This document shows, piece after piece, positions 3,092 through 12,349 of a stretch of DNA of 64,000 bases. Each line of letters starts with the position of its first letter. Position 1 is the stretch's first letter. The DNA lies in the NCBI GenBank assembly GCA_965213675.1, contig OZ243916.1, forward strand, positions 3,456,001-3,520,000. Reading direction: 5' to 3'. The translations under genes were made by a program, and so were the position numbers. The notes under the pieces were generated by a model. It saw nothing but the letters and a program-made list of their open reading frames with translations. It was not told the DNA's origin and did not search any database. This DNA comes from an uncultured Candidatus Binatia bacterium. Lineage in GTDB: Bacteria; Desulfobacterota; Binatia; UBA9968; JAJDTQ01.

Positions 3092-4001
3092 CGCCAGCGC
3101 CGGTCTCACGGCCGCCGGGCCGCGGCCACCCGCGCCCGCCCAGGGCGTGTGGCAACAGTTCCGGCGCCACAAGGGCGCGGTGGCCGGCGCCGCGGTGTTC
3201 GCCTTCATGGCGCTGGCAGTCCTGCTCGGCGCTGCGGCGCACGGCGTCGACCCCCAGCATCTCGACTACCTGTCCCGGAACCAGGGCGTGTCGCTGGCGC
3301 ATCCCATGGGCACGGACAATCTCGGCCGCGACACGCTGGCGCGGGTGCTGGCCGGCGGGCGGATTTCCCTGGCGGTGGGGGTCGCCGCCATGGGCCTGTC
3401 GCTCACCCTCGGCGCCTTCGCCGGCGTCATGGCCGGCTTCTTCCAGCGGCTCGACGGCCCGCTGATGCGTCTCACCGACCTCTTTCTGGCGCTGCCGGTG
3501 CTGCCGCTGCTGCTGGTGGGGATCATGCTGTTCCGGGACCCGTTGCGCGCCGCTCTGGGACCGGAGGCGGGAATCTTCATCCTGGTGGTGGCGGTCATCG
3601 GCCTGACGAGCTGGATGCAGACCGCCCGGCTGGTGCGCGGCGAGGTCCTGGCCGTCAAGGAGCGCGAGTTCGTCGTCGCCGCCCGCGGCATGGGCGCGTC
3701 CCCGCGCGCCATCATCCTGCGCCACATTCTCCCCAACGCCCTGAGCCCCATCACCGTCGCCGCCACCCTGGGCATCGCCAACGCCATCATCACCGAAAGT
3801 GCCCTGAGCTTCCTGGGCCTGGGCTTCCCTTCCGACTTCCCCACTTGGGGCCGCCTTCTCTTCGACGGCGTCCCGTTCCTGGAAATCGCCCCCGCGCGCG
3901 TGCTCTGGCCCGGCTTGGCCATCTCGCTCACGGTCCTGAGCGTGAACTACATGGGCGACGGCCTGCGCGACGCCCTGGACCCCAGGGTCCGGCGGCACTG
4001 A
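3084..4001 (+). CDS. Peptide ABC transporter permease (DppC/OppC-like)
   Basis: HPMGTDNLGRD, EFVVAARGMGAS, HILPN, GDGLRDALDPR motifs. Confidence 0.93.
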   Translation: MSDASAGLTAAGPRPPAPAQGVWQQFRRHKGAVAGAAVFAFMALAVLLGAAAHGVDPQHLDYLSRNQGVSLAHPMGTDNLGRDTLARVLAGGRISLAVGVAAMGLSLTLGAFAGVMAGFFQRLDGPLMRLTDLFLALPVLPLLLVGIMLFRDPLRAALGPEAGIFILVVAVIGLTSWMQTARLVRGEVLAVKEREFVVAARGMGASPRAIILRHILPNALSPITVAATLGIANAIITESALSFLGLGFPSDFPTWGRLLFDGVPFLEIAPARVLWPGLAISLTVLSVNYMGDGLRDALDPRVRRH

Positions 4002-4044
4002 GGCTGCCCAGGCAATCGGGCGGCCCGCGTTGGGCACCTCGAGT

Positions 4045-4710
4045 TCAAACCTGGATCCGCGGGCGCGGCGGCGGTGCGCGTCTGGCGAGCGAGCGGATAC
4101 CGGCTTCTTCGGTGACGGCGTACCAGAACCGTTCGCCGTCCAGAGCCATGCACGCGGGTCGGAAGGGAACCACCCGGCGTTCCATGACCTGCTCGCGCGC
4201 CGGGTCGAAGCGTAGAAACGCGTAGACGGCCTGGCGCTCATCGCTCCAGTCGCCGAGGGGGCCGGGGTCGCACTCGGCGCACCAAATCTCGTCGCCGAAC
4301 GAAGTAGGGCTGTAGACCTGATGCTCCATGCGGATGGTCCAAAGGTTCCGTCCGCTCTCGGGGTCGATGCAGAAGAGCTTGCGGTTGCGCCGGTGGGTCA
4401 GCCACAGCTTGCCGTTCAGCACCGTGGCGCCGGACGCGGCGCCGTCGGGACAATCGAAGCGGCGCACCACGCGATTCGTTTCGCGGGACCAGAGCAGCAG
4501 TTGCTGTCCCAACCTGCCGCCGCCGGTGATGAGCCACAGGCCTTCGCTGCACGGACAGGCGTGGCGGACTCCAGGGAGCGAGAGAACCTCCTCGCACGAT
4601 TCACTGGCGGGATCGTAAGCCAACACGACGGACTCGTCGGCCGACGCAAGCCACAGGCGCCCCGAGTGCCACTGCATGTCCGTTACGGAGATTGACCGGA
4701 TGTCGATCAT
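4045..4710 (-). CDS. Hypothetical protein, probable beta-propeller
   Basis: Repeated G-x-L-W blade-like units (GRLWL, EGLWL, GKLWL, DEIWC, ERFWY). Confidence 0.6.
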   Translation of the reverse strand: MIDIRSISVTDMQWHSGRLWLASADESVVLAYDPASESCEEVLSLPGVRHACPCSEGLWLITGGGRLGQQLLLWSRETNRVVRRFDCPDGAASGATVLNGKLWLTHRRNRKLFCIDPESGRNLWTIRMEHQVYSPTSFGDEIWCAECDPGPLGDWSDERQAVYAFLRFDPAREQVMERRVVPFRPACMALDGERFWYAVTEEAGIRSLARRAPPPRPRIQV

Positions 4711-4782
4711 GGGCGTGAGGCGGTGGGCGGCGATTTCCTCTGGTCTCCCGAAAGCCCCGAACTACGCCGAGTTGTGCCCCGT

Positions 4783-6642
4783 CTATTGCGAGGGATGATG
4801 CGCGCTCGACGTATTCGTCGTCTCGACGGTATTCATGAACGGCGGCGTTCGCGGAGTCTCGCCCCCAATAAGCAAGCGAATGTCCGCCAAATCTTTGACG
4901 AATACGTCCGCACTCACCCGATAGTAGCGCCAGCAACTGAACTCGTGCGCCCAGCGCGTTGCATGGATGGCGTGCTCTGCCTTGTCAACGTATTGGGCCG
5001 CTTCGGGTTCGTGACCTGTAGCCCAGTAAGCGATCGCCATGCACTGATAGAAGTTGGCACCCTTGTCTGAGTTCACGCCCGACCGGTCCAGCTCAACCAC
5101 ACGTGCAAACGTTGGTTCTTGTACCTCCCCGCTTTTACCCCATGAGGCCATCCCATAGTTGAAAGCGTCCTGGATCGTCATTTCATCCACCGGTTTGCCA
5201 TCGGCCCGAAGTACCCTCACAGCATCGGAGAATCTGCCGGTGCCGATATGGCACAGGATCAACTGTTGCCGTGCCTGCTCGCGCCGGGTCGGGGAAAGTT
5301 CTTCGCAATCGATGAGCCGTTCCCATATTGGGATTGCGATGCGCATGGTCCCGAAAGAACGGTCCAGACCGTCCGCAAGCCATATCTGGTCGTGCGGTTC
5401 CAGCGATGTTACCGCGACCGCGTGGGCCACTCGTTCCGGTTCTTGTGACCTTATCCGCGATAGGGCCTCCCGTACCATGGGGGGAGGAAGATTCGGAAAT
5501 TGAAGGACTTCCAAGGCGTCCTGCTCCGCGCCGCCGGCGTCGTTGCATTGCGCGCGACTCCGCGACCTTTGCAGAAATACTTCCGGCTTGGCATATCCTG
5601 CTGCGATTGCGCGTGACGCGATTGCGCTGGCCCAAGCTGTTTCGCCGTCGCGTTCGCGGATCTCCGCAAGCCGGTACAGGACCTCGCCGTCGGTCGGATG
5701 CGCCTTCTCGATCTTGTCGAGCATCGCATCTCTTGCCTGTATGGACTCGCCCCGGATTCGCAGTCTGCCCGTGGCTCGGCTTATGTAGCCCAATGCGCCG
5801 TCGCGGTCATCCGGGTTGAGTCGGGAAAGTTCGCGGACCAACTCTACGTATTCCTGCGCGAGGCGGCTTCTGGGGCGATCCTTCGTAAACACGACTTGGT
5901 TCAGCAACGAAAGGCTGTCGTATCTGTGAATCATCAGCAGCTCACGCTGGAAGCCGAGCTGGCTTTGGAACGCCTTGATCTTTTCGTCGAGAATGCTGTC
6001 CTCGTCGTCCAAATCCGGGACATTGGACATGACGAAATGGAGTTCGATGTCCTTGTTACGTGGTTCGTCGCTTTCGCTGCGAATCTCCCGGACCACCCGC
6101 GTCAGTCCACGCAGGTTTTGTTCGTTCGGAAAGAACAGAATCACTACCGCGTCCGGAAGTTGACGGGTGCAAATGCCGCCGACGTCGGTGTGTCCGGTGC
6201 GCGAGTCGATCAGCACGTAGTCGGGGTTGATGGTTTGCCTCCATTGCTCCTTGAGATCCTCGAACAGCAGGTAGCCGTCGCGTTCCGCATAGAGTGCGCC
6301 CCAGTCGATCTGACTGAGTCGTTGCGCGTATGTCGCGTGCCGGCCGGAGGGCATGATCCACAATCTGCCTCCGGTGTCACCGAAATCGGCCGGTGTCTCG
6401 CTGACAAAACGAGCGGCGTCTGGAGCTTGGCCCGAATCCAGGTATTCGCTGACGAAGTCAACCATTCCTGGAACCGGATCCCGTGGTGTCGTGACGTCGA
6501 AGGTGTCAAGTCCGGGAGCTTCCAGGTCGAAATCCACGACAAGTACGCCGCGTCCCCGGTTGGCCAGTTCCACGGCCACGTTCACCAAGGCCATGGAGCG
6601 GCCGACGCCACCCTTGAAGGAGTAGAAGGCTGTTATGTACAT
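4783..6642 (-). CDS. ParA/MinD-like ATPase with KGGVGR deviant Walker A and C-terminal TPR-like helical repeats
   Basis: FYSFKGGVGRSMALVNVA, VVDFDLEAPGL, YVLIDSRTG; Ala/Leu-rich helical C-terminal half. Confidence 0.85.
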   Translation of the reverse strand: MYITAFYSFKGGVGRSMALVNVAVELANRGRGVLVVDFDLEAPGLDTFDVTTPRDPVPGMVDFVSEYLDSGQAPDAARFVSETPADFGDTGGRLWIMPSGRHATYAQRLSQIDWGALYAERDGYLLFEDLKEQWRQTINPDYVLIDSRTGHTDVGGICTRQLPDAVVILFFPNEQNLRGLTRVVREIRSESDEPRNKDIELHFVMSNVPDLDDEDSILDEKIKAFQSQLGFQRELLMIHRYDSLSLLNQVVFTKDRPRSRLAQEYVELVRELSRLNPDDRDGALGYISRATGRLRIRGESIQARDAMLDKIEKAHPTDGEVLYRLAEIRERDGETAWASAIASRAIAAGYAKPEVFLQRSRSRAQCNDAGGAEQDALEVLQFPNLPPPMVREALSRIRSQEPERVAHAVAVTSLEPHDQIWLADGLDRSFGTMRIAIPIWERLIDCEELSPTRREQARQQLILCHIGTGRFSDAVRVLRADGKPVDEMTIQDAFNYGMASWGKSGEVQEPTFARVVELDRSGVNSDKGANFYQCMAIAYWATGHEPEAAQYVDKAEHAIHATRWAHEFSCWRYYRVSADVFVKDLADIRLLIGGETPRTPPFMNTVETTNTSSAHHPSQ

Positions 6643-6646
6643 GGCG

Positions 6647-7210
6647 TCAGGCCGCCATACGTAACCTGAAGTTCTCCTGGTCGCTGCGCACCTTGTCGGA
6701 GACCTTCAACGCCCGAAACGGTTGTTCACCAGTGATTGGCGTCGCTCCCGTCGCAGACTTCTCAGGCTTGATGATATCCATGAGGCGTTGCAGCGTCCCT
6801 GGCAATGCCAGTAGCCGGAGGTACCTGTCGTATGCGTGGGTCTGGATGTTGATGCCCTTTTCCCATCGATTCAGCGACGCTTCTCCGATCCCCGTGATCG
6901 CGGCAAACTTTGTGCGCGTCATGCCGAGGTCCTCCCTGATGCGACGAATCTCACGCGGGGCGAGCACGCCGAAGTGTCTGCAGACGGCCTCGTGCTGCCG
7001 GTCTTCGGCAACCTCGTCCAGATAGTCGTAGTCGCAAGGTGTACAGCGGCGCACCGGCAGTTCCACGGTCAACTCAATCGCCGACTCCCCCGTCCCATAG
7101 TCGAATGTGTGGCTGTGCATGGTGGTGGCGACAGTGTCTCGTCCGCACAGTGGACACTGGAGACCGCGCTGGGCGGGTTCTCTCGGCGTCGTCTTCTGTT
7201 CCGAATCCAT
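6647..7210 (-). CDS. MqsA-like antitoxin (Zn ribbon + XRE HTH) with C-terminal extension
   Basis: CPLC...CTPC, then EIRRIREDLGMTRTKFAAITGIGEASLNRWEKG; GAGGGA RBS before ATG 7210. Confidence 0.88.
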   Translation of the reverse strand: MDSEQKTTPREPAQRGLQCPLCGRDTVATTMHSHTFDYGTGESAIELTVELPVRRCTPCDYDYLDEVAEDRQHEAVCRHFGVLAPREIRRIREDLGMTRTKFAAITGIGEASLNRWEKGINIQTHAYDRYLRLLALPGTLQRLMDIIKPEKSATGATPITGEQPFRALKVSDKVRSDQENFRLRMAA

Positions 7211-7221
7211 TCCAAGTTCCC

Positions 7222-7578
7222 TCAATCGTTCGGTTCCGAGTAGTGAAAGCTGCGTCCAATGATCCACCCGGATCCCAGCTGAAGCTTGATGTAGAGTTTG
7301 GTTTGCCCCGGTTCCAGATCGACCAACATGACGTAGCCCGTTGCTCCGGGCGGTTTGTCCAATCTGATTGCTTCCAGAGGATGACCCTCCTCAAGTTTGG
7401 AGGCAATCAGGTCCCATGCGGCGGAGTCTGAAAAGTGCGTGTCCAGTAAACCGTTTGGGTTGCGGACCTGTCGAGGTCGCCAGTCTGTTGGGCGGCTGAG
7501 GTTGAAGTCCATGCGACGGGCGTCCTTTCGCCTGGCAAGCACGACCAATGCATGCCGTGTTGCCGCGTCTACAGGCAA
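7222..7578 (-). CDS. Putative MqsR/RelE-like toxin
   Basis: 118 aa directly upstream of the MqsA-like gene; C-terminal LYIKLQL..IIGRSFH resembles MqsR-type YxK..SF; TTG start with GGAGA RBS. Confidence 0.7.
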   Translation of the reverse strand: MPVDAATRHALVVLARRKDARRMDFNLSRPTDWRPRQVRNPNGLLDTHFSDSAAWDLIASKLEEGHPLEAIRLDKPPGATGYVMLVDLEPGQTKLYIKLQLGSGWIIGRSFHYSEPND

Positions 7579-7617
7579 AGGTCTCTCCGAGAAGTCGCGA
7601 AGAAACCGTTGGCGGCA

Positions 7618-7646
7618 ATCATATGATCGATATCCTTGTTTATCAA
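7618..7646 (-). promoter_or_regulatory. Sigma70-like promoter of the toxin-antitoxin-ATPase operon
   Basis: Minus strand TTGATA (7646-7641), 17 nt, TATGAT (7623-7618); overlapped by an inverted repeat 7623-7663. Confidence 0.7.
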
Positions 7647-7659
7647 GGGTAGTAGTCGA

Positions 7660-8151
7660 TCATTTGATAGTCCGTGTGCTGACCGGTACACGTGTTGCCG
7701 CTTTGCGGTCTGGATCGTCGTCGCTGGAACCCCATGGGTCGTAACTGCCGAAGTTCCACAGGTTGCCTTCGGGGTCGCGGCAGGAGTAGAGGCGGCCGCC
7801 GTAATGCTGGTCCTCGGGGGGCATCACGATCCGCGCGCCGGCGGCAAGCGCCCGGGAGTGGTGTGCGTCAACGTCGGAGACGATGACGTAGGGGCTTTGC
7901 GATACCGGGCCGCCAGAGTCGGTCAACGGCCGCTGTATGACTCCGAAGTCGTCGTCTCTGGCCGACCCCAGCATGACCATGCCGTTGCCGAAGACGAGCT
8001 GGGCATGGTCGATGGCGCCGTCCTTGCCGGGGATGACCCGATGGCGCTCAAAGCCGAACGCCCTGCATAGCCACTCGATGGCCGCGGCCGCGTCGCGGTA
8101 GCGGATGGTGGGAATCAGGGTGCTCTTCGTGTCCTTCGCGAGCGTGTTCAT
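7660..8151 (-). CDS. VOC (glyoxalase/bleomycin resistance) family protein
   Basis: IRYRDAAAAIEWLCRAFGF, DQHYGGRLYSCRDPEGNLWNFGSYDPW. Confidence 0.9.
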   Translation of the reverse strand: MNTLAKDTKSTLIPTIRYRDAAAAIEWLCRAFGFERHRVIPGKDGAIDHAQLVFGNGMVMLGSARDDDFGVIQRPLTDSGGPVSQSPYVIVSDVDAHHSRALAAGARIVMPPEDQHYGGRLYSCRDPEGNLWNFGSYDPWGSSDDDPDRKAATRVPVSTRTIK

Positions 8152-8387
8152 GGGTGCAGTGTTCCACATCGGGTGGGTTCCGCCAAGGTGGTCCGGAACC
8201 GGGAGACGCCGCGGCAACCGGGGTTTGACTCGCCATGCGGCCTGCGTTATCAACGGGCGCATTCGCAGTGTCTGACAGTGGCGGAAGCGGTTTCGGGTCC
8301 TGGCGCGCGTCCCGATTCTTATGCGTCGTGCCCTGGTCATGCCTTGTTTCGCCATGGAGTTGCGTCAACCAGATTCGTAGTTTCGTC

Positions 8388-9290
8388 ATGTACCCCGCCG
8401 CTTTCGACTACACCGTCGCCGAATCCGTAGGCCACGCCATCGAACTGCTCCAGCGCTTCGGGGAAGGGGGCAAGCTCTTGTCCGGCGGGCAGAGCCTTGT
8501 GCCGTTGATGAAGCTGCGGCTGGTGCAGCCGGCCCATGTCATCGACATTGGGCGGGTCGAAGGACTGTCGGACGTACGCATCGACGATGCGGCCGGTGTC
8601 GTGCGCATCGGCGCTCTGGCCACGCACGCGCAGGTGGGGGCGTCGCCCGTGGTTCACGAGCGGCTGCCCTTGATGACGGAGGCCGCAAGCGTCATCGGCG
8701 ATGCGCAGGTGCGGGGTTGGGGGACTCTGGGCGGGGCGCTGGCGGAGGCGGACCCGGCAGGGGACTGGGGTCCGGTGATGCAGGCGCTGGAGGCGCGCGT
8801 GGCGTGCGCCGGGCCGTCGGGCGTCCGTTGGGTGGATGCGGCGTCGTTCTTCGTGGACGCCTACACCACGGTGCTGGCGGACGATGAGGTGATCACCGAG
8901 GTCGAGGCGCCGCTGCCCTCACCCGGCAGCGCGGGGGCCTACCTCAAGATGGAGCGCCGGGCCGGGGACTTCGCCGTGGCCAGCGTGGCGGTGCAGCTCG
9001 GCCTGGACGGCGCGGGAAATTGCACGAAGGCCGGGGTGGCCTTGGGTGCGGCGGGATTGACCCCCATCAAGGCGGTGGCGGCGGAGGAATCGCTTTGCGG
9101 GCAACCGCCGGCGCTGGAGGTGGTGGATGCCGCGGCCGAGCGGGTGATGGAGGCGGCAAGTCCGCTCGCGGATGTGCGCGGTCCCAGCGATTACAAGCGG
9201 GCGGTGTGCGGGGCGCTGTTCCGGAAGGCCGTGGACATCGTGCTCAGGCGCCGTCGGGGCGAGAGCGTGAAAGGTGGGCACGTCCGTTAG
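8388..9290 (+). CDS. Xanthine dehydrogenase family FAD-binding (CoxM-like) subunit
   Basis: MYPAAFDY, LSGGQSLVPLMKLR, GTLGGALAEADP. Confidence 0.9.
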   Translation: MYPAAFDYTVAESVGHAIELLQRFGEGGKLLSGGQSLVPLMKLRLVQPAHVIDIGRVEGLSDVRIDDAAGVVRIGALATHAQVGASPVVHERLPLMTEAASVIGDAQVRGWGTLGGALAEADPAGDWGPVMQALEARVACAGPSGVRWVDAASFFVDAYTTVLADDEVITEVEAPLPSPGSAGAYLKMERRAGDFAVASVAVQLGLDGAGNCTKAGVALGAAGLTPIKAVAAEESLCGQPPALEVVDAAAERVMEAASPLADVRGPSDYKRAVCGALFRKAVDIVLRRRRGESVKGGHVR

Positions 9291-9320
9291 GAGCCAGTCC
9301 GTGTGGGGCGACCGCAGGTC
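9291..9320 (+). repeat. REP-like element (GAGCCWGTCCGTG..GGGGCGACC family), degenerate
   Basis: GAGCCAGTCCGTGTGGGGCGACC matches copies at 12581-12617 (-) and 39744-39788 (+). Confidence 0.55.
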
Positions 9321-9443
9321 CGTTGCGTGGTAATGACGGCGCCCTTGGGCTTCGTTACGCGGAGCCGAAGGGCATGAGAGTCTTTCTGGCGCAGCCGCTG
9401 GCCTCCATTGTGAATTGCGTGTCCCGGGGCGCAGGGAATTTCC

Positions 9444-9935
9444 ATGTCCGACAAGTCGAAGATCCGCATCACCATCAACGGCGCGCCCCACGAGGGTGAG
9501 GCCCAGCCGCGCATGCTGCTGGTGGACTACATCCGCGACATCGTGGGCCTCAAGGGGACGCGCTACGGCTGCGACACCAGCAACTGCGGCTCTTGCACCC
9601 TTGTCATGGACGGCAAGAGCGCCAAGTCCTGCACCTTCCTGGCGGTCCAGGCGGACGGGCGCGAGGTGACCACCATCGAGGGACTCGCCCAGGGGAGCGC
9701 GTTGCATCCCTTGCAGGCGGCCTTTCAGGAGAAGCACGCGCTCCAGTGCGGCTTCTGCACTTCGGGCATGGTCATGTCGGCGCATGCGTTGCTGGCTCGG
9801 AATCCGGCTCCATCGGTCGACGAGATCCGCGAGGGGATCGTGGGCAATCTGTGCCGCTGCACCGGCTACCTGCCGGTGATCGAGGCGGTGCAGGCGGCGG
9901 CGCGCAAGCTGGCCCCCGAGGGAGGCAACCCATGA
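9444..9935 (+). CDS. 2x[2Fe-2S] (CoxS-like) subunit
   Basis: GCDTSNCGSC, QCGFC, NLCRCTGY. Confidence 0.93.
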   Translation: MSDKSKIRITINGAPHEGEAQPRMLLVDYIRDIVGLKGTRYGCDTSNCGSCTLVMDGKSAKSCTFLAVQADGREVTTIEGLAQGSALHPLQAAFQEKHALQCGFCTSGMVMSAHALLARNPAPSVDEIREGIVGNLCRCTGYLPVIEAVQAAARKLAPEGGNP

Positions 9936-12349
9936 GCGCCGCCACTCGCCGGCCGCTGGTGGGCGCGCCGGTGCCGCGCAAGGAAGACCCGGAGATTCTC
10001 CGGGGTCAGGCGCGTTATACCTTCGACATCGACCTGCCGGACATGCTGCACGTGGCGGTGTACCGGAGTCCGGCCGCCCACGCGCGCATCCGTAGCGTGG
10101 ACCTGTCCAAGGCATTGGCGCTGCCCGGCGTGGTGACCGGTTTGACCGGCGAGCAGGTGCGGCAACTCGGCTACGTCAACCCGCTGTCACCGTTCCCCTT
10201 CCAGAGCCGGGATCCGTTCAAGCGCGGCAACCCCACCATCAAGTTCTTCGACCACTACTGCCTCGCCTACGACAAGGTGCGGTTCGTGGGCGAGCCGGTG
10301 GCCGCGGTGGTGGCCACGGACCGGTACATCGCCGAGGACGCGCTGGATCTCATAGAGGTGGAACTCGACCCGCTGCCGCCGGTGGTGGATTCGGAAGCGG
10401 CCCTGCAACCGGATTCCCAGCGCCTCTACGAGGACTGGGACGACAACGTCATGCTGACGTTCCGGGTGTCCGGCGGCAACGTGGACGCCGCTTTCGACGA
10501 GGCGGACGTCGTCGTCAAGGAGACCATCCACAGCGGCCGCTTCACCGGCACTCCCATTGAGACCCGCGCGGTGGTGGCCGATTACGACGCCAGCGTCAAA
10601 ACCCTGAGCCTGTGGAGCACGACCCAGATCGGCCACGCCATCGGCACGCTGGTGGAGAACACCATCGCGCTCCCGGGCCTGAAGGTCCATGTGAATTTCC
10701 GGCGCATCGGCGGCGGCTACGGGCAGAAGTGGGCGTTCTACCCGGAAGAGATCCTGGTGCCGTTGCTGTCGATCCTCACGGACCGGCCCATGAAGTGGGT
10801 GGAGACCCGGCGCGAGCACATGACCGGCACCATCCACGCCCGCGAGCAGACCCACCACATCGAGGCGGCGGTGCGCCGGGATGGGACGATCCTGGGGGTC
10901 CGGGACCGCATCGTGGCCAACATCGGCGCGGCCTATCCCACCGGCGGGCTGGCGTCCATCGTCACCACCGGCATGTTCGTGCCTGGCGCCTACCGCATCG
11001 CCAACTACGAGGGTCAGGTCCAGGGGGTGGTGAGCAACAAGACGCCCTACGGCGCGCACCGGGGTTTCGGCAAGTCGGAAGCCTGCTTTGTCATTGAGCG
11101 CATGGTGGACCGTATCGCCGTGAACCTGGGCCTCGACCCGGTGGCGGTGCGCCGGCGGAACTTTGTCCCGCCCGACGCCTTCCCCTACCGCTCGGTCACC
11201 GGCCCGCGCTACGACAGCGGTCGCTACCAGGAGGCCCTGGACAAGGCGCTGGGGTTGCTGGACGTGGACCACTGGCGCCAGGCGCAGAAAGAGGCGGTGG
11301 CCCAGGGCCGCTACCTGGGCATCGGCACCTGTCTGGTCATCGAGCCGTCCAGCTCGACGCGCATGGGTTCCTACAACGCCGGCTATTACAGCGTGCGCAT
11401 GCGCATGGATCCCAACGGCAAGGTCTACGTCTTTCCCGGCGGCAGCGACGAGGGCCAGGGCCATGCCACTTCCATCTCGCAGCTCGTGGGCGACGAACTT
11501 CAGGTGTCCTTCGACGACGTCATGGTGGTGGAAGGGGACAGTCTGGCCTGCCCTTACGGCTCCGGTTCCTACTCCAGCCGTTTCTCCGTGGTGGGCACCA
11601 CCGCGGTGACCCTGGCGGCGCGGGCGCTGCGCGAGAAGATCACCCAGATCGCGTCCGTGATGCTCCGGCATCCCCCCGGCGGGCTCGTGTTCGAGGATGG
11701 CCGGGTGTCCGTGGAGGGGCGTCCGGCCGAGGCGGTTTCCCTCATGCAGATCGCCCGGGTCGCGTACTTCTATCCGTTCCAGTTGCCCGAGGGCATGGAT
11801 CCCGGACTGGAAACGCTGTACCACTTCCGCGATCCCAACATCGAGTTCGAGGCGGACGAGCGCGGCCGCGTGGCCATGTTCAGCAGCTTCCCGTATGACG
11901 CCGAGGCTGCGGTGGTGGAGGTGGAGGCGGACACCGGGCTGCTCAGGATCCTGAAGTTCGTTTCGGTGCACGACTGCGGCAACATGCTGAACCCGCTCAT
12001 CGTCAGGGGCCAGCACGTGGGCGCCCTGGCCCACGGCTTCGGCGGAGCCCTGTACGAGGAACTGCCCTACTCCGAGGAAGGCCAGCCCTTGGCGGCGAGC
12101 TTCAAGGACTATTTCCTGCCCACGGCCATGGAGATGCCCGACATGGTGATGGAGCACATCGAGACCCCCAACCCGTTCACCCCCGGCGGCTTCAAGGGCG
12201 CGGGCGAAACCGGCACGGTGGGGCCGCCCGCGGTGCTGGCCAACGCGGTGGAGGACGCATTGAAGCCGCTGGGCATCGCCATCCGCCGCCTGCCGCTCAC
12301 GCCCCCATACCTGTGGTCGCTGATCCAGGAGGCCCGGCGCGGACGGTAG
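9932..12349 (+). CDS. Xanthine dehydrogenase family molybdopterin-binding large (CoxL-like) subunit; not form I CO dehydrogenase
   Basis: ATGA overlap with small subunit; GGGYGQK, GQGH, KGAGE; active-site loop AHRGFG rather than AYxCSFR. Confidence 0.9.
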   Translation: MSAATRRPLVGAPVPRKEDPEILRGQARYTFDIDLPDMLHVAVYRSPAAHARIRSVDLSKALALPGVVTGLTGEQVRQLGYVNPLSPFPFQSRDPFKRGNPTIKFFDHYCLAYDKVRFVGEPVAAVVATDRYIAEDALDLIEVELDPLPPVVDSEAALQPDSQRLYEDWDDNVMLTFRVSGGNVDAAFDEADVVVKETIHSGRFTGTPIETRAVVADYDASVKTLSLWSTTQIGHAIGTLVENTIALPGLKVHVNFRRIGGGYGQKWAFYPEEILVPLLSILTDRPMKWVETRREHMTGTIHAREQTHHIEAAVRRDGTILGVRDRIVANIGAAYPTGGLASIVTTGMFVPGAYRIANYEGQVQGVVSNKTPYGAHRGFGKSEACFVIERMVDRIAVNLGLDPVAVRRRNFVPPDAFPYRSVTGPRYDSGRYQEALDKALGLLDVDHWRQAQKEAVAQGRYLGIGTCLVIEPSSSTRMGSYNAGYYSVRMRMDPNGKVYVFPGGSDEGQGHATSISQLVGDELQVSFDDVMVVEGDSLACPYGSGSYSSRFSVVGTTAVTLAARALREKITQIASVMLRHPPGGLVFEDGRVSVEGRPAEAVSLMQIARVAYFYPFQLPEGMDPGLETLYHFRDPNIEFEADERGRVAMFSSFPYDAEAAVVEVEADTGLLRILKFVSVHDCGNMLNPLIVRGQHVGALAHGFGGALYEELPYSEEGQPLAASFKDYFLPTAMEMPDMVMEHIETPNPFTPGGFKGAGETGTVGPPAVLANAVEDALKPLGIAIRRLPLTPPYLWSLIQEARRGR

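Follow-up and report, generated by a model that had tools for sequence, protein, structure and literature searches.

Introduction

In Escherichia coli, the toxin–antitoxin (TA) pair MqsR–MqsA is autoregulated through palindromes in its promoter. The toxin–antitoxin–chaperone (TAC) systems HigBAC, MqsRAC and CmdTAC, several of which act in phage defence, encode a SecB-like chaperone third and use a C-terminal extension of the antitoxin as the handle. The N-terminus of ParB and peptides of MinE dock on the nucleoside triphosphatase (NTPase) domain of ParA and MinD, respectively. The subject of the present analysis is an operon of three genes, here called T, A and P, in a 64-kb window (the whole stretch of DNA analysed; contig OZ243916.1, positions 3,456,001 to 3,520,000) from an uncultured Candidatus Binatia bacterium. 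Its products are a candidate MqsR-fold toxin (T), an MqsA-family antitoxin (A) and a ParA-like NTPase with C-terminal helical repeats (P).

A related class, TA-ParA, has been proposed by Li, Burroughs and Aravind (bioRxiv 10.64898/2026.10.19.760177, 22 Oct 2026). As described in the accessible text of that preprint, it comprises a type II TA pair and a ParA fused to a C-terminal sensor, mostly of tetratricopeptide repeats (TPR), and MqsR–MqsA is named among the subtypes with BECR toxins. The same text describes a ParA conflict clade, ConB2, marked by Arg at the position of the Walker A Lys and by a PG motif after the DxD sensor. It treats TA-ParA as a theme distinct from TAC and proposes that ParA is a STAND-like switch, part of a ternary complex, that reorganizes the toxin–antitoxin complex on sensing an invader. 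As presented there, the class is so far wholly computational.

The Binatia locus shares with TA-ParA the MqsR-fold T, the MqsA-family A and the ParA-fold P with helical repeats, as well as conserved order and linkage. P bears both ConB2 hallmarks, K10-GGVG-R15 and D37-F-D39-L-E-A-P43-G44, and the locus therefore fits the TA-ParA class, as judged by its motifs. It is a real member of this newly predicted class, which is known from computation alone. A preliminary description of the same DNA had not recognized the combination as a named system, a statement overtaken by the computational description of TA-ParA in the accessible preprint text. New here are a conserved operator motif, the co-occurrence of an antitoxin tail with P, and a predicted contact between this tail and the NTPase domain; none of the following appears in the accessible preprint text: the antitoxin tail, its joint occurrence with ParA, the tail–NTPase interface, the ATCATATGAT operator and ParA-only short forms.

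Other described systems resemble the locus in part. With the E. coli MqsR–MqsA pair (3HI2; b3022/b3021) it shares the toxin-first order, a very short intergenic gap, an antitoxin built of a Zn ribbon and a helix-turn-helix (HTH) domain, and the toxin fold. In contrast, T has 118 amino acids (aa) against 98 and no detectable sequence similarity, A has 16 more N-terminal and 44 more C-terminal residues than E. coli MqsA, and there is a third gene. The tripartite organization with an antitoxin tail as a probable handle is analogous to TAC, whereas a ParA-like NTPase with TPR-like repeats takes the place of the chaperone. P shares with ParA and MinD the dimerizing NTPase fold with a deviant Walker A motif, and in the prediction its NTPase domain receives a short peptide from a DNA-binding partner. 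Unlike those proteins, P has Arg in place of the catalytic P-loop Lys, so that the canonical KGGxGK[ST] of partition ParAs (ParABS, type I) is absent. The NTPase-plus-repeat layout is like that of STAND/Avs sensors, a likeness also drawn in the accessible text of bioRxiv 10.64898/2026.10.19.760177, but P contains no AAA+/STAND module, and its effector is not fused to it but encoded separately as a TA pair. The operon ptuXYZ, as it appears in the accessible part of an mBio 2025 survey of RelE/ParE (PMC11980606), is a different tripartite operon.

Linkage of the three genes

The open reading frame (ORF) list and the sequence place the trio on the minus strand of the window in a single orientation:

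7578-7222, minus strand: T, 118 aa, TTG start; candidate endoribonuclease toxin of the MqsR fold (BECR-type)
7210-6647, minus strand: A, 187 aa, ATG start; antitoxin/repressor of the MqsA family
6642-4783, minus strand: P, 619 aa; KGGVGR ParA-like NTPase with a TPR-like C-terminal region

As the preliminary description had read them, the genes are co-oriented and separated by 11 nucleotides (nt; T/A, 7211-7221) and 4 nt (A/P, 6643-6646), and the operon is about 2.9 kb long. The sequence GGAGAG lies 4 nt upstream of the TTG start of T. This start and the ATG of A are both backed by N-termini that are conserved among homologues; in T, conservation extends over the first 22 residues.

A scan seeded with P, with one genome per species, returned 541 relatives, and the counts given below for genome loci refer to the best 80 of these 541 (individual loci are cited by L numbers). 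The preliminary description had stated in advance that a lack of linkage between the ATPase gene and the TA pair in other genomes would speak against a tripartite system. That objection is not borne out: by tblastn, 79 of the 80 genome loci have T and A immediately upstream of P (order T-A-P), and the stop codon of A is usually a few to about 20 nt from the start of P. In the remaining locus, from a Thermoguttaceae metagenome-assembled genome (L078:2856-3991), a Pfam MqsA gene (39 bits) occupies the antitoxin slot and an unrelated 154-aa ORF that matches no family occupies the toxin slot, which may be a toxin swap. The hosts include Binatia, Acidobacteriota, Gamma- and Alphaproteobacteria, Spirochaetia, Latescibacterota, Planctomycetota, Thermodesulfobacteriota and Gemmatimonas, and the T-A-P family is sharply conserved across at least eight phylum-level lineages. 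P is present in 11 of 24 other species searched in the genus of the window, and the source genome holds a single copy each of P and T.

The reciprocal scan, seeded with T in metagenomes, gave 77 loci, 70 of which had a T match of at least 90 residues; at least 1300 nt of downstream sequence was available in 52 of those. A was found in 52 of these 52 loci and P in 48 (37 of 40 distinct T sequences), the loci with room for P that lack it being L101/L103, L105 and L120. Among seven matching contigs of IMG/VR, three carry the full trio (L161-L163), copies that may ride on prophages or other mobile elements, and four (L164-L167) carry KGGVGR relatives in other contexts. Pairwise distances of T, A and P correlate over 64 loci (r 0.76-0.81), and none of 999 permutations reached the observed value in a Mantel test of A against P. 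Such a correlation is evidence of joint inheritance rather than of binding. On the linkage data, T, A and P form a unit.

The toxin and antitoxin

T has 266 close homologues in a collection clustered at 90%, and a profile search (E ≤ 0.001) detected 484 representatives at 50% clustering. T itself has no match in Pfam, NCBIfam (E ≤ 0.1) or PADLOC, and the whole-library profile search gave no bridge to MqsR among the matches listed (150 of the 484, all with E < 4e-21). The AlphaFold2 (AF2) model of T, calculated from an alignment of 39 sequences, has a predicted local distance difference test score (pLDDT) of 81.3 and a predicted template modelling score (pTM) of 0.76. When compared with 48,161 chains using VIA-align, a structure search that is independent of Foldseek, the model matches E. 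coli MqsR best (3hi2_D; Z 8.8, root-mean-square deviation 2.6, 89 of 91 residues aligned). The runner-up scores only Z 4.5, and RelE, YafQ, HigB and BrnT score about 4. The designation "MqsR-like" given to the first gene in the preliminary description is thus borne out by the fold, without any sequence signal.

Residues Y96, K98, S110, F111 and H112 are invariant across 76 diverse T relatives, and R109 is invariant or nearly so. The catalytic residues essential in MqsR are Tyr81 and Lys56, according to the accessible part of PMC9636575. Y96 lies opposite Tyr81 in the sole segment aligned by hhalign, which is itself non-significant.

The family assignment of A, likewise anticipated as MqsA-like, is direct. 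A exceeds the curated cut-offs of TIGR03830 (65.6 against 61.8) and PF15731 (34.2 against 30), and hhalign aligns it with E. coli MqsA at 93% probability (E 3.4e-7, 121 columns), with MqsA 1-130 corresponding to A 17-143. The Zn ribbon is marked by two CxxC pairs (C19, C22, C56 and C59) that are invariant among homologues, and an XRE-type HTH spans approximately residues 85-140. The roughly 44 C-terminal residues beyond MqsA consist of a variable linker followed by a conserved motif that runs from F165 to L183.

The ParA-like NTPase and its repeats

P matches the NCBIfam family NF047398, "KGGVGR-motif variant AAA ATPase", over residues 2-187 with 175.9 bits against a cut-off of 90 (E 1e-51). 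The AF2 model (pLDDT 88.7, pTM 0.81) consists of three parts, an alpha/beta domain (residues 1-275), helical hairpins (280-562), and a terminal small beta-hairpin with a helix. The elements discussed below are:

5818..6642, minus strand: NTPase domain of P, residues 1-275; ParA/MinD fold with Walker A K10-GGVG-R15-S, sensor D37-F-D39, P43-G44 and Walker B D146
6235..6303, minus strand: helices 114-136 of P (W114...W134, "FEDLKEQW" region), of low column entropy; core of the predicted tail-binding surface
4957..5805, minus strand: helical-repeat (TPR-like) region of P, residues 280-562; candidate sensor

In a Foldseek search of the PDB, the alpha/beta domain matches Soj (6iub_A; E 3.7e-7, TMt 0.75), MinD (1g3q; TMt 0.80) and also ParA. 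The P-loop reads K10-G-G-V-G-R15-S, with Arg at the position of the Walker A Lys; P thus retains the signature Lys, the DxD sensor and Walker B, and has exchanged the P-loop Lys for Arg. K10, D37-x-D39, P43-G44 and D146 are invariant in homologues, and R15 is nearly so. One homologue (L060:4001-5788) has KGGVGC at the P-loop instead of KGGVGR.

The approximately 330 residues that follow the NTPase domain form TPR-like helical repeats. Matches to TPR_19, TPR_14 and TPR-S are weak and all below cut-off, and PDB sequences yield a single weak TPR match (LpoP, E 9e-4), which is the reason for calling the repeats TPR-like; leads from a language model are TPR clusters. The repeats are more variable than the NTPase domain, with a mean column entropy of 2.34 against 1.2. 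The third gene had been described as a KGGVGR ATPase with Arg for the Walker A Lys and TPR-like repeats, and NF047398, the Soj/MinD fold and the helical hairpins all agree with that description. The C-terminal part varies in length among homologues: an ORF of 949 aa (L068:4001-6850) carries an additional 349 residues with no Pfam match, and P0174 and P0223 (740 and 731 aa) carry a C-terminal extension of about 115 residues.

No SecB-family match to P was found in Pfam or NCBIfam. P scores 25.4 against the NCBIfam model ParA_partition, under its cut-off of 180, and the ORF list contains no ParB-like gene around the operon. In PADLOC, P has a partial match to PDC-M28B (E 5.1e-33), between its residues 4-218 and positions 131-349 of the 438 in the profile; the NTPase domain resembles the B component in part, but the architecture differs. 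T and A have no PADLOC match, and no match to the A component of PDC-M28 was found among T, A and P. PDC-M28 is named in no paper found in the literature search, which also gave nothing relevant on KGGVGR.

The antitoxin tail and its predicted contact with P

The conserved motif at the C-terminus of A occupies one short segment of the gene:

6656..6727, minus strand: C-terminal tail motif of A, residues 162-185 (F165...L183); predicted docking peptide for P

Tail length was counted from the conserved RWE motif in the HTH up to the stop codon. This count left out eight loci without an RWE match (L008, L042, L078, L121, L152, L154, L156 and L157). In all 137 of the 137 scored loci that have P, the distance is 63-101 aa, with a median of 73. 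The loci that lack P give 45 aa (L120), 54 aa (L101/L103), 57 aa (L151) and 60 aa (L105), and their antitoxins end without the F-R-x-L ... F-x-L-R motif. Another locus without P, L098, gives 42 aa, but merely 275 nt of the contig remain downstream. L128 has a 70-aa tail and just 35 nt downstream, where P could not have been seen. The antitoxin tail co-occurs with P, and the two-gene versions are without it, the independent cases that lack P being few (about four). Among these two-gene loci, T and A lie at 4001-4345 and 4342-4893 in L101/L103 and at 505-870 and 888-1355 in L120. A hidden Markov model (HMM) of the tail alone was rejected as a detector in favour of the RWE-to-stop distance, as it is too short and missed 34 loci that have P.

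The preliminary description had called for complex modelling of the antitoxin with the ATPase-TPR protein. P and A were modelled together from alignments of 38 rows each in the same locus order, along with three controls. The complex reached an ipSAE (interface confidence) score of 0.67 (0.68, 0.66 and 0.67 in the individual runs) against 0.01 for the best of the three controls. This mark is reached by 58 of 80 solved complexes and by 2 of 110 mismatched pairs, counts that are approximate here because our own alignments were supplied. The runs share at least 30% of the contacts, and the partner pLDDT is at least 71.

All confident interface residues of A fall within 162-185, that is, within the tail motif. 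Those of P (71-76, 114-136, 153-161 and 186-195) all belong to the NTPase domain and include the helix that follows Walker B, and the repeats contribute zero confident interface residues. Residues 114-136 are among the most conserved of the family, but this conservation does not extend to the four KGGVGR relatives without T and A (L164-L167). The predicted contact is thus one of the C-terminal tail of A on the NTPase domain, which would leave the repeats free, and it sharpens the earlier idea that P might be a sensor or stabilizer.

An operator-like palindrome upstream of the operon

The region upstream of T contains the following elements:

7646..7618, minus strand: promoter-like site, TTGATA -35 (7646-7641), N17, TATGAT -10 (7623-7618); 10 of 12 consensus matches
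7618..7627, minus strand: perfect 10-bp palindrome ATCATATGAT, overlapping the -10; putative, likely antitoxin operator
7659..7668, minus strand: second palindrome copy ATCAAATGAT, 41 nt upstream of the ATCATATGAT copy

The promoter-like site is present as first described, 39 nt upstream of the T start, and the bare consensus is by itself at the level of chance (two sites in 4500-8000 against 1.0 ± 1.1 in shuffled sequences). The pattern ATCAWATGAT, in contrast, occurs nowhere else in the 64 kb, with three strand matches against 0.02 expected. In 77 genome loci the sequence ahead of T extends over 150 nt or more; 59 of them have the palindrome core there (central wobble allowed), compared with a background rate of 0.006 per 150 nt in the remainder of these loci. 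The exact TCATATGA is found in 47 of the 77, and 25 have two copies at a spacing of 41-42, 51-53 or 72-74 nt. In related loci, 86 sites give the consensus A-TCATATGA-T. The palindrome thus recurs upstream of the operon across phyla.

The ATCATATGAT palindromes are what an autoregulated TA operon would be expected to look like, and from their sequence and position they are likely bound by A. The motif differs from the operator of the E. coli pair. A 5-bp inverted repeat over the -35, CCTTG-N5-CAAGG, was dropped as an operator candidate, as it is not conserved in other loci.

Genomic surroundings

The lower GC content noted in the preliminary description is confirmed: it is 0.56-0.61 over positions 4751-7750, whereas the flanks are at 0.64-0.72. 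The flanking genes encode ABC-type permeases, a weakly beta-propeller-like protein and a glyoxalase-family protein, and the ORF list shows no evident integrase, replication or other mobile-element gene within 3 kb. The 221-aa ORF at 4045-4710 on the minus strand has sub-threshold matches to beta-propeller-type Pfam families (PQQ_2, SGL) and is found at the same position in L024. Beyond the glyoxalase gene, three plus-strand ORFs (8235-12349) appear by translation to encode FAD-binding, 2Fe-2S and large molybdopterin subunits, and can be read from the translations as a CO-dehydrogenase/xanthine-dehydrogenase-type enzyme.

The wider context was scanned in 26 taxonomically spread loci (142 flanking ORFs, PADLOC E ≤ 1e-8), 11 of which have a PADLOC-positive flanking ORF, as a raw count without baseline. 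The clear defence neighbours comprise methylase and specificity subunits of a type I restriction-modification (R-M) system (L001), a SIR2/pAgo-associated gene with HEC-05 (L025), SIR2 (L043), a type IIG R-M gene (L049), HerA with a methylase (L055), PDC-S05 (L057) and a CapP-like gene (L007). The remaining matches are to a generic helicase, nuclease or regulator. The defence context around the operon is suggestive only.

Proposed mechanism

With moderate confidence, we read the locus as a three-gene TA-ParA module in which a ParA-like switch with a repeat sensor gates an MqsR/MqsA-like pair. T would be an MqsR-fold ribonuclease toxin held by the Zn-ribbon N-domain of A, and the HTH of A would repress the operon at the two ATCATATGAT palindromes, one of which lies over the -10. 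The family-specific C-terminal tail of A, about 25 residues long, would dock on the NTPase domain of P, and P would act as a ParA-like switch with its TPR-like repeats as the sensor. In the resting state the three proteins would form a silent T-A-P ternary complex. Once an invading phage or another mobile element supplies a cue to the repeats, the ParA domain may change its nucleotide or dimer state, and this change could be relayed through the docked tail to A, which would be pulled off T or destabilized. The freed T would then cut mRNA and halt the cell. This reading agrees with the model put forward for TA-ParA in bioRxiv 10.64898/2026.10.19.760177. The analysis itself shows the gene anatomy, the folds, the linkage, the operator motif, the joint occurrence of tail and P, and a predicted tail–NTPase interface; that T is toxic, that A binds the palindrome, what sets off the switch and in which direction it works are what we infer.

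A tentative and more specific version, which may well prove incorrect, is that A is a "client" of the ParA switch as ParB and MinE are of ParA and MinD. The tail (F165-R-x-L ... F-x-L-R) would dock on a family-specific surface of the NTPase domain beside the helix that follows Walker B, and sensor-triggered, nucleotide-dependent dimerization would mechanically strip or re-orient the operator-bound A, thereby freeing the RNase and de-repressing the operon in one event. If true, a coupling mechanism would have been defined for the first time in a TA-ParA system, and a partition-type interaction between an ATPase and a partner peptide would have been reused as an immune trigger.

Several observations weigh against the gated TA-ParA module. 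In the case of T, Foldseek found nothing in the PDB at E ≤ 0.001 for the model, the best matches being de novo NTF2-like proteins (E 0.06). A PDB profile search with the T alignment gave chance-level rows from which MqsR is absent, hhalign of T alignments (39 and 76 sequences) against E. coli MqsR gave a probability of less than 1%, and in a Pfam scan none of the 76 diverse T relatives matches PF15723 (MqsR_toxin). No counterpart of the essential MqsR Lys56 was identified in T. T is MqsR-like by its predicted fold only, and by the sequence criterion it lies outside the Pfam MqsR family PF15723. The score of the predicted P-A complex is the model's own confidence; structures of ParA/MinD bound to partner peptides have been solved, and resemblance to them may account for some of the high score. 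The correlation among the T, A and P distances is as much a product of common ancestry as of interaction. Housekeeping genes, not a defence island, flank the operon in the window, and clearly defence-type neighbours are confined to a minority of the sampled loci, again as a raw count with no baseline.

The variation of P itself also belongs on this side. P is reduced to the NTPase domain (about 275-310 aa) in 9 of the 80 genome loci. Short-form loci are L022, L024, L026, L028, L037, L063, L073, L075 and L080 (P at about 4001-4850), as well as L008 and L093. In two further genome loci P is cut near residues 335-350, and in four species of the genus of the window (G003, G004, G013 and G021) it is cut at about residue 285. 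An HMM of the C-terminal region of P detected no separate gene for that region in the short-form loci. In L024 the operon lies at the same chromosomal site as in the window, with the same beta-propeller-like gene and ABC permease downstream; there T and A are preserved in full and P stops at residue 284. Erosion extends to T in L022 and L028. The short forms keep the predicted tail-binding surface, and the tail of A is intact in those loci; judging from the sequences, they could be either decay products or a functional sensor-less form. Since T-A pairs without P also exist (L101/L103, L105 and L120; also L151), the pair can persist without the sensor.

Alternative explanations

The tail lends itself to a different explanation, in which P is a constitutive stabilizer. 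The tail would make A unstable or inactive unless held by P, as the ChAD tail does with a SecB-like chaperone in HigBAC, MqsRAC and CmdTAC, and the toxin would be freed when P is titrated or lost. In favour of such an addiction, the antitoxin has a family-specific C-terminal extension that accompanies the third gene, docks on the product of that gene in the prediction and is missing from the two-gene versions. We nevertheless consider it unlikely, as P is an NTPase with a sensor-type architecture rather than a chaperone and has no SecB-like match, and the accessible text of bioRxiv 10.64898/2026.10.19.760177 sets TA-ParA apart from TAC. The retention of tail and binding surface in the NTPase-only loci fits either model and does not discriminate between them.

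The ParA/Soj fold of P also brings to mind a stability or partition cassette, with A binding the palindromes as a centromere-like site and touching ParA through a terminal peptide, and T acting as a post-segregational killer for a mobile islet. A belongs to a DNA-binding family, repeated palindromes that could form such a site lie upstream, and its terminal peptide is predicted on the NTPase domain, where the peptides of ParB and MinE dock. The GC content of the operon below that of its flanks and the presence of the full trio in three of the seven IMG/VR loci point the same way. We hold this to be improbable, given that partition ParAs do not typically have Arg for the Walker A Lys or an attached 330-residue repeat domain, that the genome has one chromosomal copy of the module, which occupies the same chromosomal site in a congener, and that no integrase or replication genes were seen within 3 kb. 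The accessible text of bioRxiv 10.64898/2026.10.19.760177, moreover, places the clade among conflict systems. It is very improbable that the locus is an ordinary two-gene MqsRA-like pair with P as a transcriptional passenger or an independent regulator that makes no direct contact with T or A. The pairs without P, and the truncation of P in several lineages while T and A are intact, would be in keeping with it, but the fixed-order linkage in 79 of 80 and 48 of 52 loci from many phyla, the gaps of 4 nt or similarly short length, the co-occurrence of the tail with P and a complex prediction far above the controls all argue against it.

Implications for the TA-ParA family

TA-ParA was proposed in October 2026 from comparative genomics alone, and toxicity, neutralization, trigger and protection are so far predictions. 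The family described here offers concrete handles, all of them predicted: a 10-bp operator, an antitoxin tail that can be deleted, and a defined patch on the NTPase. The natural tail-less two-gene variants and sensor-less variants could be used as controls. Because the module is compact and conserved and makes testable predictions, it is a good entry point to the question of how a TA pair would be gated by a SIMIBI-class NTPase whose P-loop Lys is replaced by Arg.

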